Below are positions 4,612 through 62,539 of a stretch of DNA of 64,000 nt, piece after piece. This stretch comes from Acidobacteriota bacterium. GTDB taxonomy: Bacteria; Acidobacteriota; Terriglobia; Terriglobales; Acidobacteriaceae. Position 1 is the first letter of the stretch, and every line of letters begins with the position of its first letter. A program made the position numbers and the translations under genes. The notes beneath the pieces were generated by a model, which saw only the letters and a list, made by a program, of their open reading frames with translations, was not told the DNA's origin and made no database searches. Location: contig JAJXZL010000024.1 of NCBI GenBank assembly GCA_021780075.1, forward strand, positions 3,975 through 67,974, written 5' to 3'.

Positions 4612-5151
4612 ATGTCGCGTATTGGAAAGAAACTGATCCCGCTGCCGGCGGGCGTCAAGTATAAGGTCGAAGGCAACACCGTGCTGGTCGAGGGTCCCAA
4701 GGGCAAGGTTTCGGCGCTGATTGCCAACGGCATCTCCCTGGAGACGGTTGACGGGCATTTGCATGTGAAGCGCGAAGGCGACAAGTATGCCGCCATGCAC
4801 GGGCTGACGCGCGCGCTGGTGTTCAATGCCATCGAGGGCGTGACCAAGGGCTGGAGCCGCGAGCTGGACATCGTCGGCATCGGCTACCGCGCGGAGCTGA
4901 AGGGCAAGGGGACTGTGGTCTTCACGCTGGGCTACTCGCACCCCATTGAGTTTCCGCTGCCCTCGGGCATCGAGGTGGCGATTGACCCCAAGCAGACGCA
5001 CCTGACCGTCTCCGGCATTGACCGGCAGAAGGTGGGCCAGGTGGCGGCCGACATGCGCTCGTTGCGCAAGCCGGACCCGTACAAGAACAAGGGCGTGCGC
5101 TACTCGAACGAGAAGCTGAAGAAGAAGGCCGGCAAGACGGGCTCGAAGTAA
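4612..5151 (+). CDS. rplF: 50S ribosomal protein L6
   Basis: [31 protein letters not shown], the L6 N-terminus. The ORF-track start at 4519 is trimmed to the ATG at 4612. Confidence 0.95.
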
Positions 5152-5221
5152 CCCGCGGCTAATCGCGGCATCACAACCGAACGGGGCCGCACGGCGGCTC
5201 CGCTGATAGGAACGAGAGACC

Positions 5222-5578
5222 ATGATTACGCAGACCAAGAGAAACGCAATCCGGCAACGCATTCACGCGCGCATCCGCCAGAAGCTTTCGGGCACGACAG
5301 AGCGCCCCCGGCTGAATGTCTACCGCTCGCTTAACCACATCTACGCCCAGGTCATCGATGACCAGAAGGGCGAAACGCTTGTCTCGGCCTCCACGCTGGC
5401 GCTGAAGGTGAAGACCGGCGGCAACCTGGCCGCTGCCAAGGAAATTGGCAAGGCCGTTGCTGAAAAGGCAGTCGAGAAGGGTATCAAGAAAGTGGTCTTC
5501 GACCGCGGCGGCTTCCTGTATCACGGCCGCATCAAGGCGCTGGCCGATGCAGCCCGCGAGGCCGGGTTGGAATTTTAA
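5222..5578 (+). CDS. rplR: 50S ribosomal protein L18
   Basis: [35 protein letters not shown]...[22 protein letters not shown], the L18 signature. Confidence 0.96.
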
Positions 5579-7014: not shown

Positions 7015-8400
7015 ATGCTTGAGAAGTTTCTCAATATCTTCCGGATTCCCGACCTGCGCAAGCGGGTACTGTTCACGCTCGGCATTCTGGCTGTTTATCG
7101 CCTGGGCGCATTCATTCCCACGCCGGGCGTAAACACCCACCAGCTCGAACTGCTCTTCAGCCAGCAGAGCGGCTCGGCGCTGGGCCTGATGGACCTGTTC
7201 GGCGGCGGCAACCTGCGCCGCATGACCATCTTCGCCCTCGGCATCATGCCGTACATCACGGCGTCGATTATTTTCCAGCTCCTCACCGTGGTCTATGAGC
7301 CGCTGGCGCGCATCCAGAAGGAAGGCGAGCTGGGCCGCCGCAAGATTACCCAGTGGACCCGCTACGTCACCGTCGTTCTGGGCGCTCTCCAGTCCATCGG
7401 CATTGCCGCCATCCTTACGCGGCAGGGCCTGGTGCTGCATCCGGGCATCAGCTTCAGCCTGATGACGGTGCTTACCCTCACCACGGGTACCGCCTTCATC
7501 ATGTGGCTGGGCGAGCAGATTACCGACCGCGGCATCGGCAACGGCATGAGCCTGCTGATCTTTGCGGGCATCGTCGCGGGCCTGCCCCGCGGCGTGGGCG
7601 ATCTGCTCCAGAAGATCCAGACCAACGCCTGGGGCTCGTTCACCATCATGGCCGTTCTGATTCTGCTTGCCGCCATGATTGCTGTCGTCGCCTTCATCGT
7701 TTTTGTGGAGCGGTCTGAGCGGCGCATTCCCATCCAGAGCGCGCGGCGTATCGTTGGCCGGCGCATGATGGGCGGCCAGTCCAGCCATCTGCCTCTCAAG
7801 GTGAACTCGGGCGGGGTCATGCCGGTCATCTTTGCCAGCTCCATCCTGTCTGCGCCGCTGCTCTTCGGCCAGGTGGAATGGGTGCAGAACAGCCGTCTTC
7901 TGCAGCCGATTATGGAAGCCCTTCAGCCCGGCTATCCGTGGTATGAGGCGCTGTACATGATGGGCATCGTCTTCTTTGCGTATTTCTACGTGTCCATCAT
8001 CATGAAGCCGGATGACATTGCAGACAACTTCCGCAAGTCAGGCTCGTTCATTCCCGGCATCCGGCCCGGCAAGCGCACGTCCGACTTCATCAACGACATT
8101 CTTACCCGCATAACGCTGGTCGGCGCACTCTACCTGATTATCATTTCCCTGGTGCCTACCTTCCTGATTTCGGGCATTCGATTCGACAAGATCTGGCTCA
8201 TTGGCAGGTTCTTTGAGAGCCTTCCCACCTGGGCAACGCACGGTTTGGGGGTCAATTTCTACTTTGGCGGCACCTCCCTGCTCATTGTGGTGGGTGTGGC
8301 CATGGACACCATAAACCAGATCGAATCGCAGCTGATCATGCGTCACTATGACGGCTTTTCCCCGCGCTCCGGTCGCATTCGCGGAAGGAAAACCTGGTAA
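7015..8400 (+). CDS. secY: Preprotein translocase subunit SecY
   Basis: 461-aa polytopic membrane ORF with RMTIFALGIMPYITASIIFQLL and GEQITDRGIGNGMSLLIF. Conserved position after rplO. Confidence 0.97.
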   Translation: MLEKFLNIFRIPDLRKRVLFTLGILAVYRLGAFIPTPGVNTHQLELLFSQQSGSALGLMDLFGGGNLRRMTIFALGIMPYITASIIFQLLTVVYEPLARIQKEGELGRRKITQWTRYVTVVLGALQSIGIAAILTRQGLVLHPGISFSLMTVLTLTTGTAFIMWLGEQITDRGIGNGMSLLIFAGIVAGLPRGVGDLLQKIQTNAWGSFTIMAVLILLAAMIAVVAFIVFVERSERRIPIQSARRIVGRRMMGGQSSHLPLKVNSGGVMPVIFASSILSAPLLFGQVEWVQNSRLLQPIMEALQPGYPWYEALYMMGIVFFAYFYVSIIMKPDDIADNFRKSGSFIPGIRPGKRTSDFINDILTRITLVGALYLIIISLVPTFLISGIRFDKIWLIGRFFESLPTWATHGLGVNFYFGGTSLLIVVGVAMDTINQIESQLIMRHYDGFSPRSGRIRGRKTW

Positions 8401-54784: not shown

Positions 54785-57700
54785 ATGAGTAAGGTTCGAA
54801 TCAACGATCTCGCGCGCGAGATGGAAGTCAAGAGCCGCCAGGTTCTTGACGTGCTGGCGGAGCTTGGCCTGGGCGAAGGCAAAACTCACTCCAGTTCTAT
54901 TGAAGATCATGAGGCCGAAAAAGTGCGCGCTCAGTTTGCGCGCGGCTCGCGCTCGGCGGGCAGCGGTGCGTCTACCCGCGGCTCACAAACGATTGCACCC
55001 AAGATCGATCTCTCCCACGTCTCGAAGCCCGGCGACGTGATGAAGGCCATACTGGCAAAGAAGCAGGAAGAGGAAGCGGAAGCCCGGCGGAGCCATGCGC
55101 CCGCGAAGCCTGCTGCCGCTGCTTCAGCCAAGACGGCTGCTACGGCGGCTGTGCCCGCTGCCCCTGCGCCGCCCGCCACGCCCGCCAAGCCGGAGCCGCG
55201 GAAGATTGTTCCGTCAGCCCGGCCCGCACCGCCCATCATCGCTGCGCCTCATACTCCGCCAGCCATTGCAAGTCGTCCGCCGGCTGGTCCGGTGGTGGCC
55301 AAGGCTCCCGCCGGAGCAGCGCCTGCGCGTCCCGCCGTTGCGGTGGTTCCACCAGCAGCTGCAGTCGTGGTGAAGCCGCCGGCTGCGCCAGCTCGTGAAG
55401 CTCATCCGCATCCTGCAGAGCACGCTGCTGCGACCGCCAAACACGTTACGCCTCCAGCCCCGGTTGTCGCTGTGGAGGCCGCTGCCGCGCCTGTTGCAGC
55501 TGCACCCGTCTCAGCCGCTCCGGTCGCGTCGCCGGCGGAGAAGCCCTCTGTGGCCGCCGCTGCCGTCGCGGAGCAGGCGCCTATCGCCGCTCCGGTAGCG
55601 GCGGAGCCTGTGCCCGCGCCTGAGGCAGCAGCCACAGAGACGAAAGCGGCTAAAGTCGCCCCGCCAGAAGCTGCCACGCATGCGGCTCCGGCAGTTCCCG
55701 TTCGCCGTGTTGTGATGCCCCAGACGGGACCGCGCCCGGTCTATAAGGCGCCGCCCGTGGTTCCCAGCCAGCCTGCCCCTACCGCCCAGGCTGGTGGACT
55801 GCAACGCGGCAGGCCCATTTTTGATCGCAGACCCACTGGCGGCCCTGGCAGCTATCCTCAGCGCACCCCCGGCGGTGCTCCTGGGCAGTTCCCGGCCGGA
55901 CCACGACCCAAACATCCCACGCGCACCACACCCGGGGGCTACGCAGGACCCGGAGGTCCAGGAGCTCGTCCCGGCTTCGGAGCTCGTCCTGGCTTCGGCG
56001 CGCCGCGCCCCGGCGGCTTCGGCGGCCCACGTCCCGGCCCCGGCGGAGCACCACCGCCCGGAGAGGCTCCCCGTCCACAGCGCGCAGCCCCAAGAGGACG
56101 CGGTGGACGCCCGCAGTACCCCAAGACGAAGGAAGGCCCGATGAAGGGCTTTGTGCCGCCGCCGCGCTTTGGCGGTGCGACACAGTTCAGCAATGAGCCG
56201 CTGCCCATCACGCGTGAGATCACGGTTACCGAGGGCATCAGCGTCAAGGACCTGGCAGAAAAGCTGGAAATCCGCGCCAAGGATCTGATTGCCACCCTGC
56301 TGATGCGGGGAGTCTTTGTCACCGTCAACCAGTCTCTCGACGCTGAGATGGTGAAGGACGTCGCTGCCAAGTTCGGCGTCGGCGCCAACGTGATCAGCTA
56401 CGAAGAGGAAATCGCCAACCAGGCCATCGAAGAGGTTCTGGAGGCGGAAAACACCGGTGAGCTCGAAGTGCCGCGTTCGCCCGTTGTCACCGTCATGGGC
56501 CACGTGGATCACGGCAAGACCTCGCTGCTCGACGCGATCCGCGAAACCGACGTGGCGGCAGGAGAAGCCGGCGGCATCACCCAGCACATTGGCGCCTACA
56601 AGGTGCGTTTCTCCAAGGAAGGCTCGCCAGCCTCCGGGCGCGAGATTGTCTTCCTCGATACGCCCGGCCACGAGGCCTTCACCCGCATGCGCGCTCGCGG
56701 AGCCAAAGTGACCGACATCGTGGTCATCGTGGTGGCCGCCGACGACGGCGTGATGCCGCAGACTCTTGAAGCCATCGATCACGCGAAGGCTGCCGAGGTG
56801 CCCATCATCGTGGCCGTCAACAAGATTGACAAGCCCGAAGCCAATCCCGACCGCGTGAAGAAGCAGCTCGCAGATCGTGGCCTTATCCCTGAAGAATGGG
56901 CTGGCGGCGGCGAGGGCAGCACGGTCTTTGTTGAAGTCTCGGCCAAGAAGCATCTCAACCTCGACCTGCTGCTGGAGATGATCTGCCTGGTTTCGGACAT
57001 CAAGGCTCCCAAAGCCACGCCTGGCCGCAAGGCTGTGGGCAGTGTGCTGGAAGCCAAGCTGGACCGCGGCCGCGGCGCCGTGGCCACCGTGCTGGTGCAG
57101 GATGGCACCCTGCGCCTCAACGACAGTTACATCGTGGGCAACACCTTCGGCAAGGTCCGCGCCATGTTCGATGATCGCGGACGCGCCATCGAAGAAGCCG
57201 GCCCTTCCACCCCGGTTGAAGTGCTGGGCCTCGAAGCCATGCCCGACTCCGGCGACACATTCCTCGTTGTGGCCGATCGCGACAAGGCCAAGGGCATCGC
57301 GCAGTACCGCAAGATGAAGGAGCGCGAGGCGCAACTGGCCAAGAGCTCCCGCGTATCGCTTGAGGGACTTGCCGAGCAGATTCGCCAGGCCGGCGTGAAA
57401 GACCTTGCCCTCATCATCAAGGGCGACGTTACCGGTTCGGTCGAGGTGCTGGCCGACTCGCTGGTCAAGATGTCTACCGAGAAGGTGCGCGTGAAGGTCA
57501 TCCACTCCGGCGTCGGCTCCATCACGGAGAGCGACGTGCTGCTGGCCACTGCCTCGAACGCCATCATCATCGGCTTCAACGTGCGCCCCGAGCGCAAGGC
57601 CGCTGAACTGGCGCAACAGGAAGGCGTCGAGATTCGCCTGCACTCCATCATCTACGAGTTGCAGGACGAGATGCGCCTGGCCATGATGGGCCTGCTCGAA

Positions 57701-58033
57701 CCCACGTTCAAGGAGAACTACGCGGGCCGCGCCGAGATCATCAACGTCTTCCGCATTCCCAAGGTGGGGACGATCGCCGGCTGCCGCGTACAGGATGGCG
57801 TGATCCGCCGCGACTCGGAAGTGAAGGTGATGCGCGACGGCGAACAGGTGTTCAAGGGCAAGATCGGCTCGCTCAAGCGCTTCAAGGACGATGTCCGCGA
57901 AGTCACCAACGGCATGGAGTGCGGCATCGGTCTCGCCGGATTCGGCGACCTGAAGGAAGGCGACCTCATCGAAGCCTTCACCACGGAGAAGATGGCAGCC
58001 GACCTGGGCGCACTGACTTCCGCCAAGGCGTAG
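54785..58033 (+). CDS. infB: Translation initiation factor IF-2 (long Ala/Pro-rich N-terminal region)
   Basis: [24 protein letters not shown] (IF2_N), G-domain [29 protein letters not shown], and the C-terminal beta-barrel. Confidence 0.97.
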
Positions 58034-58059
58034 CTCTTAATCAGGACGAAGAAAAACAC

Positions 58060-58106
58060 GGCCCGCTTCTCAATCTGAGAGGCGGGCCAATTTTCTGTGG
58101 CCCGCC
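58060..58106 (+). terminator. Hairpin(s) after the intact infB stop; three mutually complementary GC segments
   Basis: GGCCCGCTTCTC (58060-58071) pairs with GAGAGGCGGGCC (58077-58088), 12 bp with one G-U, followed by AATTTTCTG. GGCGGGCC (58081-58088) can alternatively pair with GGCCCGCC (58099-58106). Confidence 0.55.
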
Positions 58107-58280
58107 AATGCGGACACGTCACGACGACCTCGTCGAGAGGCTCTGCAGGTTAGTCGCCCACGGCGCGACGGCTCGCGCGGCACACCATGCAAGCGGCCAC
58201 GCGCCTCGAATACAAAACATCGCATGGCGTCTATAGGTCAGACCTCAACAGTGGCGCAGGAAGCAAAAACTATTGAAATC

Positions 58281-58310
58281 TTGACATTGCCCTCCGGAAA
58301 AGCGTATAAC
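58281..58310 (+). promoter_or_regulatory. Sigma-70-like promoter upstream of the GH28 gene
   Basis: TTGACA (58281-58286), an 18-nt spacer, and TATAAC (58305-58310). It lies 71 nt upstream of the ATG at 58381, which has a GGAGG RBS. Confidence 0.55.
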
Positions 58311-58319
58311 CTCGCGATA

Positions 58320-58336
58320 ATGTGGTCAGACCACAT
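58320..58336. promoter_or_regulatory. Perfect 17-bp palindrome ATGTGGTC-A-GACCACAT (candidate operator, GntR/FadR-like TGGT-N3-ACCA core)
   Basis: All 8 arm positions are complementary around the central A at 58328. It starts 10 nt downstream of the putative -10 hexamer. Confidence 0.55.
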
Positions 58337-58380
58337 ATTCTCATGCCAGATATGAAAGTGGCATCATTGGAGGCTGTTCC

Positions 58381-59625
58381 ATGCATTCTGATCGCTGGGC
58401 GAATTTGCTCGCCGCAAGCGCAGTTTTCCTTCTTTCCGTGTCGTTCCTGCCGGCTCAAACGCTGGCGACAGGCGATGCGCGCAAATTCATTCCTGAACCG
58501 CAATACCCGGCTGTTTGTACCGTCCTTAAAGCACAATTCAGTTCATCCCAGCGGTCAGCCCCGCCGAGCGCCGACGACACGAGTCGCCTGCAAGCAGCAC
58601 TCGCAAATTGCGCGGGCACCGGCAAAATGGTTCTGCTTACGCCCTCGGCTGCGGGAGACGCCTTCTACTCCGGTACGCTCAAAGTCAAAGGTGAAGCGCT
58701 CGTGGTTGGCGCTGGCGCGACACTGTTTGGCAATAACAATTATTCCGGGGAGTTGCTGAGCATCTCCGGCAACAATCCGGCCGTCATGGGCCCGGGCACC
58801 ATCGATGGCCGTGGTGACTTGATCCACGGCACGCCTCGCCTGATCAATTCAAAGGGTGCGATCGGCCTGACGGTGTATTACGTGACACTGATGCATGCGG
58901 CAAAGATGCACCTCTACGTGGAAGGAGGCAGTGACTTTACCGCGTGGAGGGTGACCGTGGCCACGCCCGCCAATACCAAGAACACTGACGGAATCGATAT
59001 CGATAGCGTAACCAACGCGACAGTATTCAATTGTTCCCTGGAGGACGGCGATGATGGCGTGGCAATCAAAACCAACTCCGGGCCTGCCTCGAACATCACC
59101 ATTCGCAATAACATGTTTTACGGGACACATGGCATCTCGATCGGCAGCCAGACGATGTATGGCGTAAGCAATGTTCTATGGGAAAACAACCAGTTGTACG
59201 GCACCGACAAGTTCGGTAATGTCTCGACCGACAGCAACGGCATCAACATCAAGTCTGATATTGAGTGTGGCGGCATGGTCAGGCAGGTCACCTATCGGCA
59301 GACACATCTCGTCGGCGTGAAGCACCTGCTGATCTTCAATACCTACTACGGAAGCTGCTCGGGGCACACCGGCATTCCCACGTATCAGGACATTGTGGTG
59401 GACGGCGTGTTTGCAACCGACTCGCAGGCTGGCGCGTATTCGCTGTTCCAGGGGTACAATGACGCCAATCCGCTCAACATTTATCTCGCCAACGTCTTCC
59501 TGGACGTGAACAAGCTGAAGACTAGCCAATACTCCATCATCGGAATCGACAACTCCAGCATCACTCCGTCCGGCACTGGGGTCACAACGTTTCCCTTCAA
59601 ACTGTACGGGAAGCTGCCGCAATAG
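58381..59625 (+). CDS. Glycoside hydrolase family 28 (polygalacturonase-like, right-handed beta-helix), secreted
   Basis: Signal peptide LLAASAVFLLSVSFLPAQT. GH28 motifs NTDGIDID, EDGDDGVAIKT, GTHGISIGSQ, GINIKS. Confidence 0.88.
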   Translation: MHSDRWANLLAASAVFLLSVSFLPAQTLATGDARKFIPEPQYPAVCTVLKAQFSSSQRSAPPSADDTSRLQAALANCAGTGKMVLLTPSAAGDAFYSGTLKVKGEALVVGAGATLFGNNNYSGELLSISGNNPAVMGPGTIDGRGDLIHGTPRLINSKGAIGLTVYYVTLMHAAKMHLYVEGGSDFTAWRVTVATPANTKNTDGIDIDSVTNATVFNCSLEDGDDGVAIKTNSGPASNITIRNNMFYGTHGISIGSQTMYGVSNVLWENNQLYGTDKFGNVSTDSNGINIKSDIECGGMVRQVTYRQTHLVGVKHLLIFNTYYGSCSGHTGIPTYQDIVVDGVFATDSQAGAYSLFQGYNDANPLNIYLANVFLDVNKLKTSQYSIIGIDNSSITPSGTGVTTFPFKLYGKLPQ

Positions 59626-59648
59626 GGTTGCAGACACCAGCTCAGGAA

Positions 59649-59761
59649 ATGCGCCATTGATGTGCCGGCTTCGGCGGCTTCAAGGCAGGCGATATCATCG
59701 AAGCCATCTCTACGGAGAAGATGGCCGCGACCTCGGCGCGCTGGCCTCTGCCAATGCCTAA
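59649..59761 (+). pseudogene. infB: Relic of an infB 3' end (frameshifted, diverged copy of infB codons ~1045-1082)
   Basis: 59667-59761 aligns with 57938-58033. My hand count is 76 identities over 96 columns with one 1-nt gap. It reads GFGGFKAGDIIEAISTEKMAA, then after the 1-nt deletion DLGALASANA-stop (TAA 59759-59761). Intact infB reads [31 protein letters not shown]-stop. Confidence 0.8.
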
Positions 59762-59782
59762 CCCTCATCCAGTTCCAGGAAC

Positions 59783-59820
59783 AATCCCGCTGCTCACAAT
59801 GAGTAGCGGGATTCTTTTTT
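59783..59820 (+). terminator. Strong intrinsic terminator (probable original infB terminator)
   Basis: AATCCCGCTGCTC (59783-59795) pairs with GAGTAGCGGGATT (59801-59813), 13 bp including one G-U, with a 5-nt loop, followed by CTTTTTT. Confidence 0.85.
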
Positions 59821-60033: not shown

Positions 60034-60062
60034 TTGACAGTCTAGTTTGTATGGGATTAAAT
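60034..60062 (+). promoter_or_regulatory. Possible sigma-70-like promoter in an AT-richer spacer
   Basis: TTGACA (60034-60039), a 17-nt spacer, and TTAAAT (60057-60062). It lies about 37 nt upstream of the ATG at 60099, which has an AAGGAGGA RBS. Confidence 0.35.
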
Positions 60063-60098
60063 TAGTGATGGTTACTGTCAATGCTAAGGAGGAATTAT

Positions 60099-60494
60099 AT
60101 GCGCCGTATCCACATAGCAAGCGTCCTCATCTTCCCGTTGCTTTGCACCGCAGCGGCTGTCGCAAGCTCGCCCGCGACCGAAGCCGCCGCTGCCTCAACC
60201 GGCGTTCTACGTGTCAGCACCGGCGTGACACCCGCCGAAGTCATCTACGCCCCGCACATCGCGCTTTCCCAGGAGGAAATCGCCGAAGGGTTCCCCAACA
60301 CGGCTGAAATCGTTGTGCACATGAACGTCGACCAGATGGGCAAAGCGCAGGACGTGAAGGTTGTCCACTCGTTTTACCCCACGCTCAATGAAAACGTGGT
60401 GAATGCAGTGCGCCAGTTCCGGTTCCGCCCGGCCAAGCTGGACGATCAGGCCATCCCCATTGACATGAACCTCAATATCCAGGTGAAGCGCTAA
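60099..60494 (+). CDS. Secreted protein consisting of a TonB C-terminal-like domain only
   Basis: Signal peptide MRRIHIASVLIFPLLCTAAAVA. AEIVVHMNVDQMGKAQDVKVVHSFYPTLNENVVNAVRQFRFRPAKLDDQAIPIDMNLNIQV matches the TonB_C/energy-transducer pattern (G..V.V..S....LD.AA..AV..W.F.PA). The strong RBS favours 60099 over the ORF-track start at 60081. Confidence 0.65.
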   Translation: MRRIHIASVLIFPLLCTAAAVASSPATEAAAASTGVLRVSTGVTPAEVIYAPHIALSQEEIAEGFPNTAEIVVHMNVDQMGKAQDVKVVHSFYPTLNENVVNAVRQFRFRPAKLDDQAIPIDMNLNIQVKR

Positions 60495-60530
60495 CGCGCA
60501 AATCAACTGACTTCTGTTTCCAATCTTCCA

Positions 60531-60582
60531 CTCCTCCATCCTCGAGAAAGACCTTCTGTCAGGATGGAGGAGTTTTGTTTTT
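60531..60582 (+). terminator. Intrinsic terminator
   Basis: CTCCTCCATCCT (60531-60542) and AGGATGGAGGAG (60561-60572) form a perfect 12-bp stem, followed by TTTTGTTTTT. Confidence 0.8.
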
Positions 60583-60738
60583 GGCTGCCTGCGTGCGTGA
60601 GCGTTACCGGATCCGCCGGTCCGGTAACGCCAACCTCAACCAAAACATAACGCTCCTCCATAACGAGTAGAAAATCGCCAGCCTCTCAAAACGAGAAGCG
60701 GGCCGATATATTTTTAAACTTCAGTGCGCAAAATCTCT

Positions 60739-60763
60739 GAACACCCCGCATCCATTCTCCGTC
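60739..60763 (+). promoter_or_regulatory. ECF-type promoter candidate (GAAC-N17-CGTC) upstream of the ECF sigma gene
   Basis: tctGAAC (60739-60742), 17 nt, CGTCtta (60760-63). It lies about 55 nt upstream of the sigma-factor ORF start and fits the autoregulated ECF promoter architecture. Confidence 0.5.
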
Positions 60764-60816
60764 TTAGCATATGAACACAAAGTAAAAGTGCCTCACGCCC
60801 CTTAACTTATGCGTGA

Positions 60817-61383
60817 GTGCAACGTCTGGTTGCGGAAACGAGAGATAGCCCGGTCTTGGCCACAGACGAAGAGGTGGAGTTTACGGCACTCGTCCAGCGC
60901 CAGTCGCGCTTCGTCTTTCGTGTCGCCTATGCGGTGCTGCTGAATTCCCGCGATGCCGAAGACGTGGTGCAGGAGACCTTCTTGAAGCTCTATCGCAATC
61001 GCGGATGGCAACACCTCGACAATGAACGCGCCTTTCTGGCCCGCGTTGCATGGCGCATCGCCGTCGACCATCGCCCTCGATCCGTTGCATCCCCGTTGAA
61101 GCCGCTTGATGACGGCATCGAGATCGAGCCGCGCTCGAGCGAGCCTGGCCCCGAGCAAATCACGCTGGCTGCAAATCGGGAGGCCGTGATTCACTCCCTG
61201 ATCGACGCTTTGCCTGAGGAACTGCGTGTGCCCCTTGTGCTTTCCGCGTTCGACGAAATGAACTCACGTGAGATTGGCAACATTCTGGCCATTCCTGAAG
61301 GTACGGTGCGAACACGCCTGCAGCGGGCGCGCCAGATACTGCGCCAGAAACTAACGGCTCTTGAGGCAATACGCTATGCCTGA
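60817..61383 (+). CDS. RNA polymerase sigma-70 family, ECF subfamily
   Basis: Region 2: FVFRVAYAVLLNSRDAEDVVQETFLKLYRN. Region 4: LPEELRVPLVLSAFDEMNSREIGNILAIPEGTVRTRLQRARQIL. GTG start as in the ORF track; a later TTG or GTG is possible. Confidence 0.9.
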   Translation: MQRLVAETRDSPVLATDEEVEFTALVQRQSRFVFRVAYAVLLNSRDAEDVVQETFLKLYRNRGWQHLDNERAFLARVAWRIAVDHRPRSVASPLKPLDDGIEIEPRSSEPGPEQITLAANREAVIHSLIDALPEELRVPLVLSAFDEMNSREIGNILAIPEGTVRTRLQRARQILRQKLTALEAIRYA

Positions 61384-61948
61384 ACGCGATGATCTCAATT
61401 CAATGCTTGACTTGGCCCTGATGACTTATGGCGATCCCGGTCCGGACTCGGGCCTTGAGCAGCGCGTACTGGCCCGCGTGGCCGCGGAAGCTGCATCCTC
61501 GCCGCTCCGCCGCTGGCTACCCTGGGCCATCGCGCTTCCCGTTGCGGCCTGCCTGTTGATCTTTGTGATATCAAGGCCGAAGATCAGCCACTCGCCAGAT
61601 ACCCATTCCACCGGAGTCACCCAGGCCTCTGAGCCGGCAGCAGCCCGCCCTGTACCCCAACCGGCACTCCAACCCGCGCCTGCCCGCAGGGGCGAATCGG
61701 CGGCAAGGAAATCGCGACCCCAGTCCGTAGCCATCGCAGCCAAAAGCGTCCCGCTGCCCAAACTTGATGTCTTCCCCACGCCGCAGCCGCTCACGCCTGG
61801 GGAGCAGGCTCTTGTTGCATTCGTCAGGCAAGCCCCAGCGTCTGAGCGTCAGGCGCTTCTGGAGGCGCAAAAAATAAAGGACGAGCCGCTCCGCATCGCC
61901 GCCATCCACATTCCACCACTCGAACCGCCCGAACGGGACGGAAACTAA
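61376..61948 (+). CDS. Putative anti-sigma factor (single-pass membrane protein)
   Basis: The ATG at 61376 overlaps the sigma gene stop by 8 nt. There is a short cytoplasmic N-terminus, one TM (WLPWAIALPVAACLLIFVI), and a Pro/Ala-rich periplasmic part. No HxxxCxxC zinc motif. The call rests on position and topology. Confidence 0.5.
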   Translation: MPERDDLNSMLDLALMTYGDPGPDSGLEQRVLARVAAEAASSPLRRWLPWAIALPVAACLLIFVISRPKISHSPDTHSTGVTQASEPAAARPVPQPALQPAPARRGESAARKSRPQSVAIAAKSVPLPKLDVFPTPQPLTPGEQALVAFVRQAPASERQALLEAQKIKDEPLRIAAIHIPPLEPPERDGN

Positions 61949-61957
61949 GGAGAAACC

Positions 61958-62539
61958 ATGCGCAAGATCGCCCTCTACTGCTGCCTACTGCTCGTCGTCC
62001 TGACCGTCGGGCATCAAGCGTTTGCCCAAGAGACCTCCAAAGCCCCAGACGATTCCAATGCCCATAGCCCGTCAAAGGTTCAGGATCTTCCAGTTCACTA
62101 CTACCATCTTTCCTTTCTGATCCAGGAGACCGGAGCAGACGGCAAGCCCACCAATAGCCGCACCTACACAACCACGGTCACCACCGACCCACAAGAGAAT
62201 TTCGGCTCCATCCGCATCGGAGCCAGAATTCCAATCGTTACATCCCCAGCAGGTTCGCAGTTTGCACCGCAATACCAATACGTGGATGTCGGCGTGAACA
62301 TTGACACGCGCCACGCTCAGGAAATCGACCACAAGCTCTCGCTCGGCCTGATTGCGGATGTGAGCAGTATTGCCTCTCCCACGGACCCTGCCCTGCACCA
62401 GCCACCCATCACTCGCCAGAACAAATGGGGGTCTACCGTTCTCATTCCCATCGGCAAGCCCACAGTGGTCTTCACGTCAGACTCTCTTGACAGCAAAGGC
62501 GGCATGCAGGTGCTGGTGACTGCAACGCAGATCGAATAG
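61958..62539 (+). CDS. Hypothetical secreted protein co-transcribed with the ECF pair
   Basis: Signal peptide MRKIALYCCLLLVVLTVGHQAFAQE, and a beta-rich sequence of ordinary composition. It starts 9 nt after the anti-sigma stop. No family recognised. Confidence 0.6.
   Translation: MRKIALYCCLLLVVLTVGHQAFAQETSKAPDDSNAHSPSKVQDLPVHYYHLSFLIQETGADGKPTNSRTYTTTVTTDPQENFGSIRIGARIPIVTSPAGSQFAPQYQYVDVGVNIDTRHAQEIDHKLSLGLIADVSSIASPTDPALHQPPITRQNKWGSTVLIPIGKPTVVFTSDSLDSKGGMQVLVTATQIE

Follow-up and report, generated by a model that had tools for sequence, protein, structure and literature searches.

Serial copies of the infB 3' end and its terminator beside small gene cassettes in a Terracidiphilus genome

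In the stretch of DNA analysed here (64,000 nt, referred to below as the window), an intact infB gene is followed by a polygalacturonase-like gene of family GH28 and, beyond it, by a damaged second copy of the infB 3' end. This raises the question how the terminus of an essential gene came to lie downstream of an unrelated gene. The original prediction was that the GH28 cassette had entered the infB terminus in the manner of elements whose integration into a gene's 3' end comes with a replacement for that end. We found that the locus contains three serial infB termini, namely, the live end, relic 1, and relic 2, with cargo genes between them (Table 1). The host of the window is a soil bacterium of Terracidiphilus.

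Table 1. Features of the infB 3' region, with positions counted from the first letter of the window
Feature	Positions	Strand	Description
infB	54785..58033	+	intact; IF-2, 1082 aa; Pfam IF-2, GTP_EFTU, IF2_N and related domains
Copy 0, live terminus	57901-58033	+	final ~133 nt of infB
T1	58060..58098	+	terminator hairpin of live infB (58060-58088) and weak U-tract
Leader	58099..58234	+	non-coding stretch separating T1 from the GH28 control region; 64-66% identity in the alignment with L087
GH28 control region	58235..58336	+	upstream palindrome, -35, -10 and 17-bp palindrome; read from sequence
Upstream palindrome AGGTCAGACCT	58235-58245	+	part of GH28 control region
GH28 promoter	58281-58286 (-35), 58305-58310 (-10)	+	TTGACA, 18-nt spacer, TATAAC
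17-bp palindrome ATGTGGTCAGACCACAT	58320-58336	+	perfect; 3' of the GH28 -10; putative operator
GH28 gene	58381..59625	+	polygalacturonase-like, 414 aa, N-terminal signal peptide; Pfam PF00295, 7.9e-32
Relic 1 (copy 1)	59631..59761	+	displaced, frameshifted copy of the final ~133 nt of infB, stop codon included
Post-stop spacer copy and T2	59762..59820	+	spacer copy 59762-59782; hairpin 59783-59813 with T6 tract
Older cargo unit	60034..60583	+	promoter-like site, TonB_C-domain gene, own terminator
Promoter-like site of TonB_C unit	60034-60063	+	
Small TonB_C-domain gene	60081-60494	+	Pfam domain match
TonB_C terminator	about 60530-60573 (hairpin)	+	hairpin and U-tract, -25.8 kcal/mol
Relic 2 (copy 2)	60610..60675	+	last ~42 nt of infB, stop codon, 27-nt post-stop spacer
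T3	60677..60705	+	decayed third infB-terminator copy; inverted and direct match to T1
ECF-type promoter and sigma-p195-p193 operon	60739..62539	+	Pfam Sigma70_r2/r4
ECF-type promoter	60739-60744, 60760-60766	+	GAACAC, CGTCTTA; motif invariant in the alignment of relatives

Three infB termini and their terminators

The recurrence of the infB 3' end at 59667-59761 was borne out, with a local alignment score of 103 that lies far above all of 500 shuffles (16.5±2.3, maximum 26). The translation of 57938-58033 into 31 residues and that of the frameshifted copy, GFGGFKAGDIIEAISTEKMAA at 59667-59729 followed in the shifted frame by DLGALASANA* at 59729-59761, were reproduced exactly as first read, and so were the 76 identities in 96 columns with one gap; over the final 96-97 nt the live end and relic 1 are separated by 19 substitutions and one 1-nt gap. 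A weaker similarity of about 20 nt further 5' had also been proposed. Similarity does extend in this direction but its reach was understated, because the homology runs about 37 nt further 5' and, on the 3' side, continues via the post-stop spacer into the terminator hairpin. With these flanks included, 57901-58086 aligns with 59632-59810 over about 185 nt with a score of 107 against 20±2.5 for shuffles (z=35), and the coding part of this alignment has two 1-nt gaps overall.

T1 (13 pairs, -28.4 kcal/mol, z -6.6, tail AAUUUUCUGU), a GC-rich hairpin followed by a U-tract, and T2 (14 pairs, -25.5 kcal/mol, tail CUUUUUUG) are both predicted rho-independent terminators. The structure at 59783-59820, which had been called the best terminator in the window, is a real hairpin with a T6 tract but ranks within the top five terminator-like sites, and the T1 hairpin is stronger than that of T2 although its U-tract is poorer. 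T1 belongs to an infB-specific terminator family, CCGCnnCTC-loop-GAGnnGCGG, and the same hairpin is found 25-50 nt past infB in about 30 relatives. This family is otherwise rare and its copies in the window are T1, T2, and T3 only. The view that the terminator behind relic 1 is the original one of infB was not supported, because T1, T2, and T3 are one family and it is T3, not T2, that is still joined to the sigma promoter.

The third terminus, relic 2, is older than relic 1 and was overlooked in the first reading of the locus. Its alignment with the infB terminus of L087, one of the two closest relatives, has 49 of 69 columns identical (z 9.4, reached by 0 of 1000 shuffles), and among 2506 tiles of the whole window it ranks at the top outside infB and relic 1. 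Relic 2 spans no more than 66 nt at 71% identity, its match to the window's own live terminus is weak, and z exceeds 4 against the infB termini of 9 of the 83 relatives compared. T3, which folds at just -14.3 kcal/mol, is together with the sigma promoter collinear with the infB-stop/terminator/sigma promoter region of L004, L005, L006, L012, and L037. Since this intergenic region is uninterrupted in the five relatives, T3 marks the ancestral infB-sigma junction, and the sigma-p195-p193 operon, which directly follows infB in all five, is on this comparison the probable ancestral neighbour of infB.

It had been suggested from the divergence of about 20% between the two copies that one of them came from another lineage. 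Relic 1 is 80.2% identical to the infB end of L087, 80.2% identical to the inferred ancestor of the clade, and 77.1% identical to infB of the window. Its 26 differences from that ancestor are distributed 7:9:10 over codon positions, with 3 indels in addition. Because the differences are even over codon positions and the nearest sequence is the ancestor of its own clade, the coding part of relic 1 looks like sequence that decayed neutrally where it lies, not like an import from another lineage. No foreign signal is seen at the live terminus either. Sliding identity between infB of the window and of L087 is 90-98% as far as the stop codon and has no breakpoint before it, and the live terminus showed no phylogenetic discordance with the rest of infB, no relative being significantly closer there than over the infB body in a comparison that at 132 nt has little power. 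That the absence of rbfA and truB is informative was not supported, as in two more distant Acidobacteriaceae, L078 and L064, the ORFs 3' of infB that are 90 aa or longer likewise had no RbfA or TruB Pfam match.

The GH28 cassette and the variable region in relatives

The TTGACA/TATAAC promoter and the perfect palindromic operator before GH28 are present exactly as the original prediction described them, and the coordinates confirm that the gene lies with both of them between the live and the displaced infB termini. The motif GGTCAGACC has two sites in the 64-kb window, both inside the GH28 control region, and the control elements are conserved 5' of GH28 orthologues in six loci, unrelated genomic contexts among them. 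The protein has the N-terminus MHSDRWANLLAASAVFLLSVSFLPAQTLA and is predicted to be a GH28 member (PF00295, 111 bits against a gathering cut-off of 22.9); the motifs N201-T202-D203, D224-D225, and H250-G251 are invariant across 16 orthologues. Orthologues with 72-82% identity lie 3' of infB in L087, L088, L090, and L093, and at other sites in L089, L091, and L092. With the same promoter and operator the gene is found at ftsI-murE in L091 and in a TetR neighbourhood in L089, and since it occurs in such unrelated contexts with its control elements we conclude that the gene has moved. The GH28 cassette lacks its own terminator, and in every context similarity ends at the GH28 stop codon. Relic 1 begins within about 6 nt of this stop codon, and T2 probably now terminates GH28. 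Rfam families gave no match within 57.8-60.9 kb, the leader included. A metagenome scan with the single GH28 protein as query found nothing, and one with the GH28 alignment as query found 45 loci.

The relatives compared are metagenome contigs or MAGs, except L078, which is an isolate of Granulicella mallensis. Six independent metagenome contigs of this species (L081-L086, 99-100% identical), which come from five or more samples, have the arrangement of the window. The closest relatives, L087 (infB 93% nucleotide identity, GH28 82% amino acid identity) and L088 (89% and 79%), share the GH28 insertion with the duplication of T1 and T2 (z 9.6 and 8.4, respectively). The insertion is old because it predates the split of the window from L087 and L088, and the divergence of about 20% between the copies fits this age. 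In L087 the coding part of relic 1 is gone through a deletion bounded by CAGGAA repeats, with the T2 hairpin kept after GH28, and in L088 relic 1 is scrambled, with marginal coding similarity, and a copy of the spacer and the T2 hairpin is kept after GH28. Thus, relic 1 is dispensable. The TonB_C unit is syntenic with L087 at 71.5% nucleotide identity.

The region between infB and the acyl-CoA dehydrogenase gene, both of which are conserved, is variable and its cargo differs in each relative. The five loci with uninterrupted junctions are empty sites, in which infB, its terminator, and the ECF sigma gene follow one another with no cargo. Relatives with infB directly before T2 and no GH28 had been expected; relatives free of GH28 do exist, namely, these five, but among 80 genome loci none has infB followed directly by T2. 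A donor or an intermediate of the form infB-T2-TonB_C lacking GH28 was not found. The sigma operon of L004 has an infB-terminator copy on either side, and in L092 an infB-type spacer and terminator come after the sigma operon, with GH28 behind them (z 10.7). L090 and L093 have infB and GH28 with no detectable relic or second terminator. Comparison of each relative locus with itself for a second infB-end copy yielded hairpin copies only, in L004 and L087, and a permissive tiling scan for such copies gave mostly spurious gappy alignments except in L004 and L088. In L083 a distant infB passes into 100% identity with the window at about 57874. This contig could be a real recombinant and was dropped as evidence because an assembly chimera at a conserved 10-residue motif is at least as likely.

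Origin of the stacked termini

Based on these findings we propose that two successive cassettes were inserted by recombination anchored in infB, each insertion stranding the previous end, spacer, and terminator downstream, and we regard this as the probable explanation. The ancestral order would have been infB, terminator, and sigma promoter. The TonB_C gene with its own promoter and terminator would have been inserted into this junction, displacing the old terminus as relic 2 and T3, and the GH28 cassette of about 1.5 kb (leader, operators, promoter, and gene, with no terminator) would have followed, turning the then-current terminus into relic 1 and T2. Homology in the infB 3' region most likely anchored the recombination, for which a dedicated recombinase would be unnecessary. 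One form that this could have taken is Campbell-type (single-crossover) integration of a circle that bore an infB end, a terminator, and cargo; another is homology-facilitated illegitimate recombination in which the non-homologous end was joined just 5' of the resident stop codon. Afterwards the coding parts of the relics would decay neutrally and displaced terminators would be kept while they terminate the upstream cargo. The three serial termini, the interposed cargo, the empty sites, the age of the insertion, and the neutral decay are observed, whereas the recombination route and the sequence of insertions are inferred. Serial insertion is supported by the similarity of copy 0 to copy 1 (z=35) and of copy 2 to the L087 infB terminus (z=9.4), by a hairpin family that is specific to infB, by T3 at the ancestral junction, by the descent of the GH28 insertion in L087 and L088, by the dispensability and neutral decay of relic 1, by the mobility of GH28, by the same footprint with other cargo and order in L004 and L092, by the variability of the region up to the acyl-CoA dehydrogenase gene, and by the lack of a recombinase domain in the main ORFs scanned. 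It is weakened by the missing donor or intermediate, by L090 and L093, by the shortness of relic 2, by a live terminus at which import of a foreign end is not seen, and by the nearly all metagenomic nature of the relatives.

Another explanation is that the infB end was copied locally, either as a slipped-strand or tandem duplication or through gene conversion that started at homologous hairpins, and that the cargo arrived in a separate event, with selection favouring the supply of a terminator to a promoter-bearing gene that had come without one. This agrees with the lack of a terminator in the GH28 cassette, with the conservation of T2 but not of the coding relic in L087 and L088, and with the derivation of the relic from the clade's own infB next to a live terminus free of foreign signal. 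However, two events would have had to coincide in every one of the two or three stacked units and also in L004 and L092; supplying a terminator does not require a coding stretch of 133 nt; and the start of relic 1 so close to the GH28 stop codon is what is expected if the edge of the relic is the insertion junction. We consider local duplication unlikely. That chance or an assembly artefact accounts for the similarity was considered solely because the comparison data are metagenomic, and it is refuted by the z of 35 against shuffles, by the identical arrangement in the six contigs, and by synteny in two other species.

The original prediction of an element integrating into the gene 3' end would make the units what is left of e14/icd- or ICE/CIME-type elements, site-specific integrative elements that targeted the infB 3' end, brought a replacement end, and lost their recombination modules. 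By tandem accretion they would have left cargo between attL- and attR-like copies of the terminus, and a recombinase encoded elsewhere could mobilise them. The displaced end beyond the cargo, which is part of this prediction, stands: infB is intact and relic 1 lies directly 3' of the cargo, which is the attL/attR topology around a target-restoring element. Two serial relics also resemble accretion at a single att site, and both cargo orders occur, with GH28 5' of the sigma operon in the window and 3' of it in L092, which is what integrating repeatedly at the same site would give. The part that calls for a recombinase and an identical core found no support. A Pfam scan limited to the ten main ORFs at 50.7-64 kb agrees with the first reading in that it detected no integrase, excisionase, or transposase domain, and none is present in the gene calls of L081, L087, L088, and L090. 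There is no identical att core at both junctions, the longest exact match being 14 nt (ACGGAGAAGATGGC) with divergence along all of the approximately 185 nt, though an old core may have decayed. In addition, the units are just 1.0-1.7 kb and relics 1 and 2 differ in their 5' limits. A site-specific origin seems to us quite improbable. In a last reading, itself distinctly doubtful, the infB terminus and terminator would be a reusable docking site of a cassette system in Terracidiphilus that is independent of recombinases or dependent on those of the host. The units, namely, GH28, TonB_C, and the ECF sigma operon, each bounded by an infB-terminator copy, would be excised by recombination between terminator copies, circularise, and insert again at the head of the array, either in the genome they came from or in a related one. 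If true, this would be an integron-like array made from the terminator of an essential gene.

The serial insertion that we favour has partial counterparts in known systems. Integrative elements that enter the 3' ends of protein genes and bring a replacement end include prophage e14 in icd of E. coli K-12 and ICESt1/ICESt3 in fda with CIME accretion. As there, the target gene is intact, a truncated copy of its 3' end lies beyond the insert, and tandem accretion can stack units. Unlike there, the infB locus has no integrase, excisionase, or identical att core, its units are 1-1.7 kb, and the duplicated stretch also includes the spacer and the terminator. Minimal mobile elements of Neisseria, reportedly a concept of Saunders and Snyder, are likewise lineage-specific whole-gene cassettes between two conserved flanks with no mobility genes, and the flanks here, infB and the acyl-CoA dehydrogenase gene, are comparable to theirs. 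They move via homologous recombination in the flanks, a double crossover that leaves the flank unduplicated, whereas here the terminus is duplicated at each step. Integron arrays share insertion at the head, the shift of older units to the back, and an imperfect palindrome after each unit. However, the palindromes here are intrinsic terminators with U-tracts homologous to that of infB, one relic includes a coding stretch of 133 nt, the cassettes come with their own promoters, and neither intI nor attI was found in the examined region.

In layout the locus resembles the 3'-end displacement arrays of Rhs, CDI, and T6SS effector loci, for which Kirchberger et al. 2017 (PMC5361080), citing Jackson et al. 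2009, propose homology-facilitated illegitimate recombination. In both cases the conserved body of the upstream gene anchors new 3' sequence that enters beside it, the 3' ends already there move downstream as orphaned fragments with the newest first, and no recombinase is in the array. An array of at least two serial orphaned 3' fragments is also what is seen here, where relic 1 and relic 2 have GH28 and TonB_C cargo interposed. The displaced ends of those systems are variable toxin domains with immunity genes retained by selection, whereas the ends here are those of a conserved housekeeping protein, the IF-2 C-terminus, and are neutrally decaying. There is no polymorphic toxin or immunity gene in the infB array, and the cargo consists of unrelated single genes, GH28 and TonB_C, plus the ECF sigma operon.

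The infB scar is old and mostly an ordinary trace of genome evolution. On the proposed explanation, small accessory cassettes that lack mobility genes can land more than once at the 3' terminus of an essential, highly conserved gene. Each insertion would be recorded as a displaced terminus copy, so that a stack of relics dates gene gains relative to one another, and terminators would be recycled for newly arrived genes. Serial copies of a gene end with its terminator may be a signature by which recombination-driven hotspots for cassettes could be sought genome-wide in little-studied phyla, Acidobacteriota among them. For annotation, the segment at 59.6-59.8 kb should be taken as a pseudogene fragment and not as a small gene.

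Several repeats near GH28 in other loci were considered as footprints of its movement and rejected. No direct repeats surround GH28 in L091 and L090. The repeat in L123 is merely a 27-nt hairpin, and a 41-nt repeat in L105 resembled a tRNA 3' end, where ARAGORN and Rfam found no tRNA. The repeat at GH28 in L089 is an element of about 110 nt with terminal inverted repeats of 15-19 bp that also occurs 5' of another gene, and it is probably a repeated motif.

Displaced infB termini downstream of GH28

The original prediction was that a frameshifted copy of the infB 3' end and a terminator lie beyond the GH28 gene, and its translations of both ends were matched exactly on re-translation. Between the last 96-97 nt of infB and 59667-59761 there are 19 substitutions and a single 1-nt gap, and the local alignment of the infB end with this copy (relic 1) scores 103 against 16.5±2.3 for shuffled sequences. 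With the flanks included the homology covers 57901-58086 and 59632-59810 (score 107, z = 35) and therefore includes, besides about 133 nt of coding sequence, the spacer after the stop codon and the terminator hairpin. Six metagenome contigs, independent of one another and all from the window's species, have the identical arrangement. The alignment and these contigs confirm the displaced infB end, and the repeat is somewhat longer than had been claimed.

Features of the infB region (window positions)
Feature	Position	Remarks
rimP, nusA, infB	infB, 54785-58033	at head of region, before GH28; infB end is copy 0
T1	58060-58088	infB-type terminator hairpin
Palindromes	58235-58245 and 58320-58336	bracket the GH28 promoter
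GH28 gene	58381-59625	after infB
Relic 1 (copy 1)	59631-59761	displaced infB end
T2	59783-59813	infB-type terminator hairpin
Small TonB_C-domain gene	60081-60494	between GH28 and ECF sigma operon
Relic 2 (copy 2)	60610-60675	displaced infB end
T3	60677-60705	infB-type terminator hairpin, decayed
ECF-type promoter	60739-60766	upstream of sigma gene
ECF sigma operon	60817-62539	after TonB_C gene
GH31 gene		convergent; closes region

The locus is richer than was first seen: two displaced termini are stacked in it. In about 30 relatives a hairpin of the T1 family, CCGCnnCTC-loop-GAGnnGCGG, follows infB at a distance of 25-50 nt; the family is rare otherwise, and only T1, T2 and T3 fit it in the 64-kb window. 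In five relatives the region from the infB stop through the terminator to the sigma promoter is uninterrupted, and T3 with the sequence beyond it is collinear with this region. Relic 2, immediately upstream of T3, can be aligned to the final ~42 nt of infB, the stop codon and the 27-nt spacer of a relative, L087 (49/69 columns identical, z 9.4, 0/1000 shuffles). In a scan of the whole window no other tile beyond infB and relic 1 scored higher than relic 2, which also has z>4 against the infB termini from 9 of the 83 relatives. Therefore, there are three serial infB termini at this locus. GH28 separates copy 0 from copy 1, the TonB_C gene, with a promoter-like site and a terminator of its own, separates copy 1 from copy 2, and the sigma operon comes after copy 2. 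Copy 2, shorter and more decayed than copy 1, would be the older displaced terminus, and the sigma operon is probably the ancestral neighbour of infB.

The ECF-type promoter (TGAACAC, N15, CGTCTTAG) is invariant in six Terracidiphilus loci, which suggests an autoregulated sigma, and the two Pfam-less proteins encoded downstream of sigma (195 and 193 aa) may be its anti-sigma factors or partners. The N-terminal third of infB (54900-56250) has a GC content of 68-74% compared to 61% window-wide, consistent with a low-complexity linker whose length varies among relatives (IF-2 of 1065-1173 aa).

Empty sites and shared insertions in relatives

A search with the infB C-terminus gave 80 loci from Terracidiphilus and other Acidobacteriaceae genomes (up to 94% aa identity), and in none of the 80 is GH28 next to infB, nor does any contain another infB end. 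In L004, L005, L006, L012 and L037 a single terminator hairpin is all that separates infB from the ECF sigma promoter and operon; this arrangement is an empty site. The absence of rbfA and truB, remarked on earlier, is probably a family trait because in two more distant relatives, Granulicella (L078) and L064, the ORFs of 90 aa or more downstream of infB gave no RbfA or TruB Pfam match.

A look-up of the closest GH28 proteins found L087 (GH28 82% aa, infB 93% nt) and L088 (79% and 89%), both syntenic with the window as infB-T1-leader-operators-GH28; L090 and L093 (74%) also have infB-GH28. In the infB tree the GH28-bearing loci group in a single clade together with L001 and L002, whose cargo is different, and within this clade the cargo between infB and the acyl-CoA dehydrogenase gene differs from genome to genome. 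In another relative the infB terminator is immediately followed by tandem repeats of ~190 nt (L013:10960-11460) that contain 43-nt blocks with 97% identity; they may be a MITE-like or satellite element.

Origin of relic 1 and mechanism of insertion

Relic 1 is 80.2% identical to L087 and to the inferred clade ancestor, 78.6% to L088 and 77.1% to the window's present infB. From the clade ancestor it differs by 26 substitutions, distributed 7:9:10 across codon positions, and 3 indels; the third-position excess seen in comparison with the window's infB is largely due to synonymous changes in the live gene. Identity between the infB genes of the window and L087 stays at 90-98% as far as the stop codon and is ~65% beyond it in non-coding DNA, and in no relative compared is the terminus significantly closer than the gene body. 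Import of one copy from another lineage, argued from the ~20% divergence of the copies, is unneeded and unsupported, as relic 1 is nearest to its own clade; neutral decay since an old event would be expected to give such divergence. L087 lacks the segment about 59649-59781 and keeps both flanks and the T2 hairpin, and CAGGAA repeats at 59643 and 59776 in the window bound this gap; the difference is due to deletion in L087 and not to gain in the window. L088 has its own infB post-stop spacer and hairpin copied after GH28 (z 8.4), and the preceding ~90 nt have marginal collinear similarity to the infB end. Thus, the duplication is older than these species splits. The coding relic is dispensable, and the displaced T2 has been kept, presumably as the GH28 terminator.

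In a metagenome contig (L083:3424-3951, window equivalent about 57506-58033) with a 922-aa infB and a YlxR gene upstream, the 5' part of infB is from a distant lineage (about 60-75% identity) and switches at a conserved infB motif (window ~57874) to 100% window identity for at least 4.4 kb, as far as the contig runs. Either the contig is an assembly chimera or it comes from a recombinant in which the crossover and the 5' edge of relic 1 are ~27 nt apart.

The structural reading, a cassette inserted at the infB terminus with the displaced end left behind, is right, and the event is ancient, with relic 1 native and decaying. An integrase-type 3'-end element, as proposed originally, is not evident because no recombinase domain was found in the main ORFs scanned across the region and the infB-end copies have no identical core; a site-specific element whose recombinase was lost or acts in trans is a possible rival. 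The topology is that of one crossover joining the resident infB terminus to a circle that bears an infB end, a terminator and the cargo, and equally that of a homology-anchored illegitimate event with the far end joined just upstream of the resident stop. GH28 orthologues with 72-74% identity and the same promoter and GGTCnGACC operators occur at unrelated sites, and their similarity ends at the stop codon in every context compared; therefore, the cassette travels with its control region and without a terminator. Local duplication of the terminus, giving a terminator to a terminator-less gene, is a further rival to insertion.

Similar footprints and the GH28 cassette elsewhere

Two infB terminator copies flank the sigma operon in L004. 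In L092 (1389-1634), a contig too short to include infB, sigma-p195-p193 comes first, next an infB-type spacer with its terminator (z 10.7 against the L090 terminus) and last GH28, a cargo order opposite to that in the window. L091:5850-7491 has a GH28 orthologue (72-75% aa) with ftsI on one side and murE on the other, within an otherwise conserved dcw cluster (mraZ-rsmH-ftsL-ftsI-murE), with no flanking repeat detected around it; its control region keeps the promoter and the GTGGTCAGACCAC operator, yet is the most diverged of six. The palindromes in the window share the core GGTCAGACC, which occurs only at these two places in the 64 kb, and no candidate regulator gene adjoins them. We take the pair to resemble a putative GntR/FadR-type operator pair.

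A 41-nt direct repeat surrounds a GH28 homologue (67% aa) in L105 (4563-4603 and 6332-6372); its minus strand resembles a tRNA 3' end (GGTTCAACCCCGG...GGCTCCA), but ARAGORN and Rfam show no tRNA in the locus. L089 has two copies (5142-5297 and 7255-7420) of a ~110-nt element without an Rfam match, with 15-19-bp terminal inverted repeats, an internal GC hairpin and a 63-nt core 78% identical between the copies. One copy is upstream of a 152-aa ORF and the other is just after GH28, upstream of a Big_2 gene; the element could be a MITE-like repeat or a cis-regulatory RNA.
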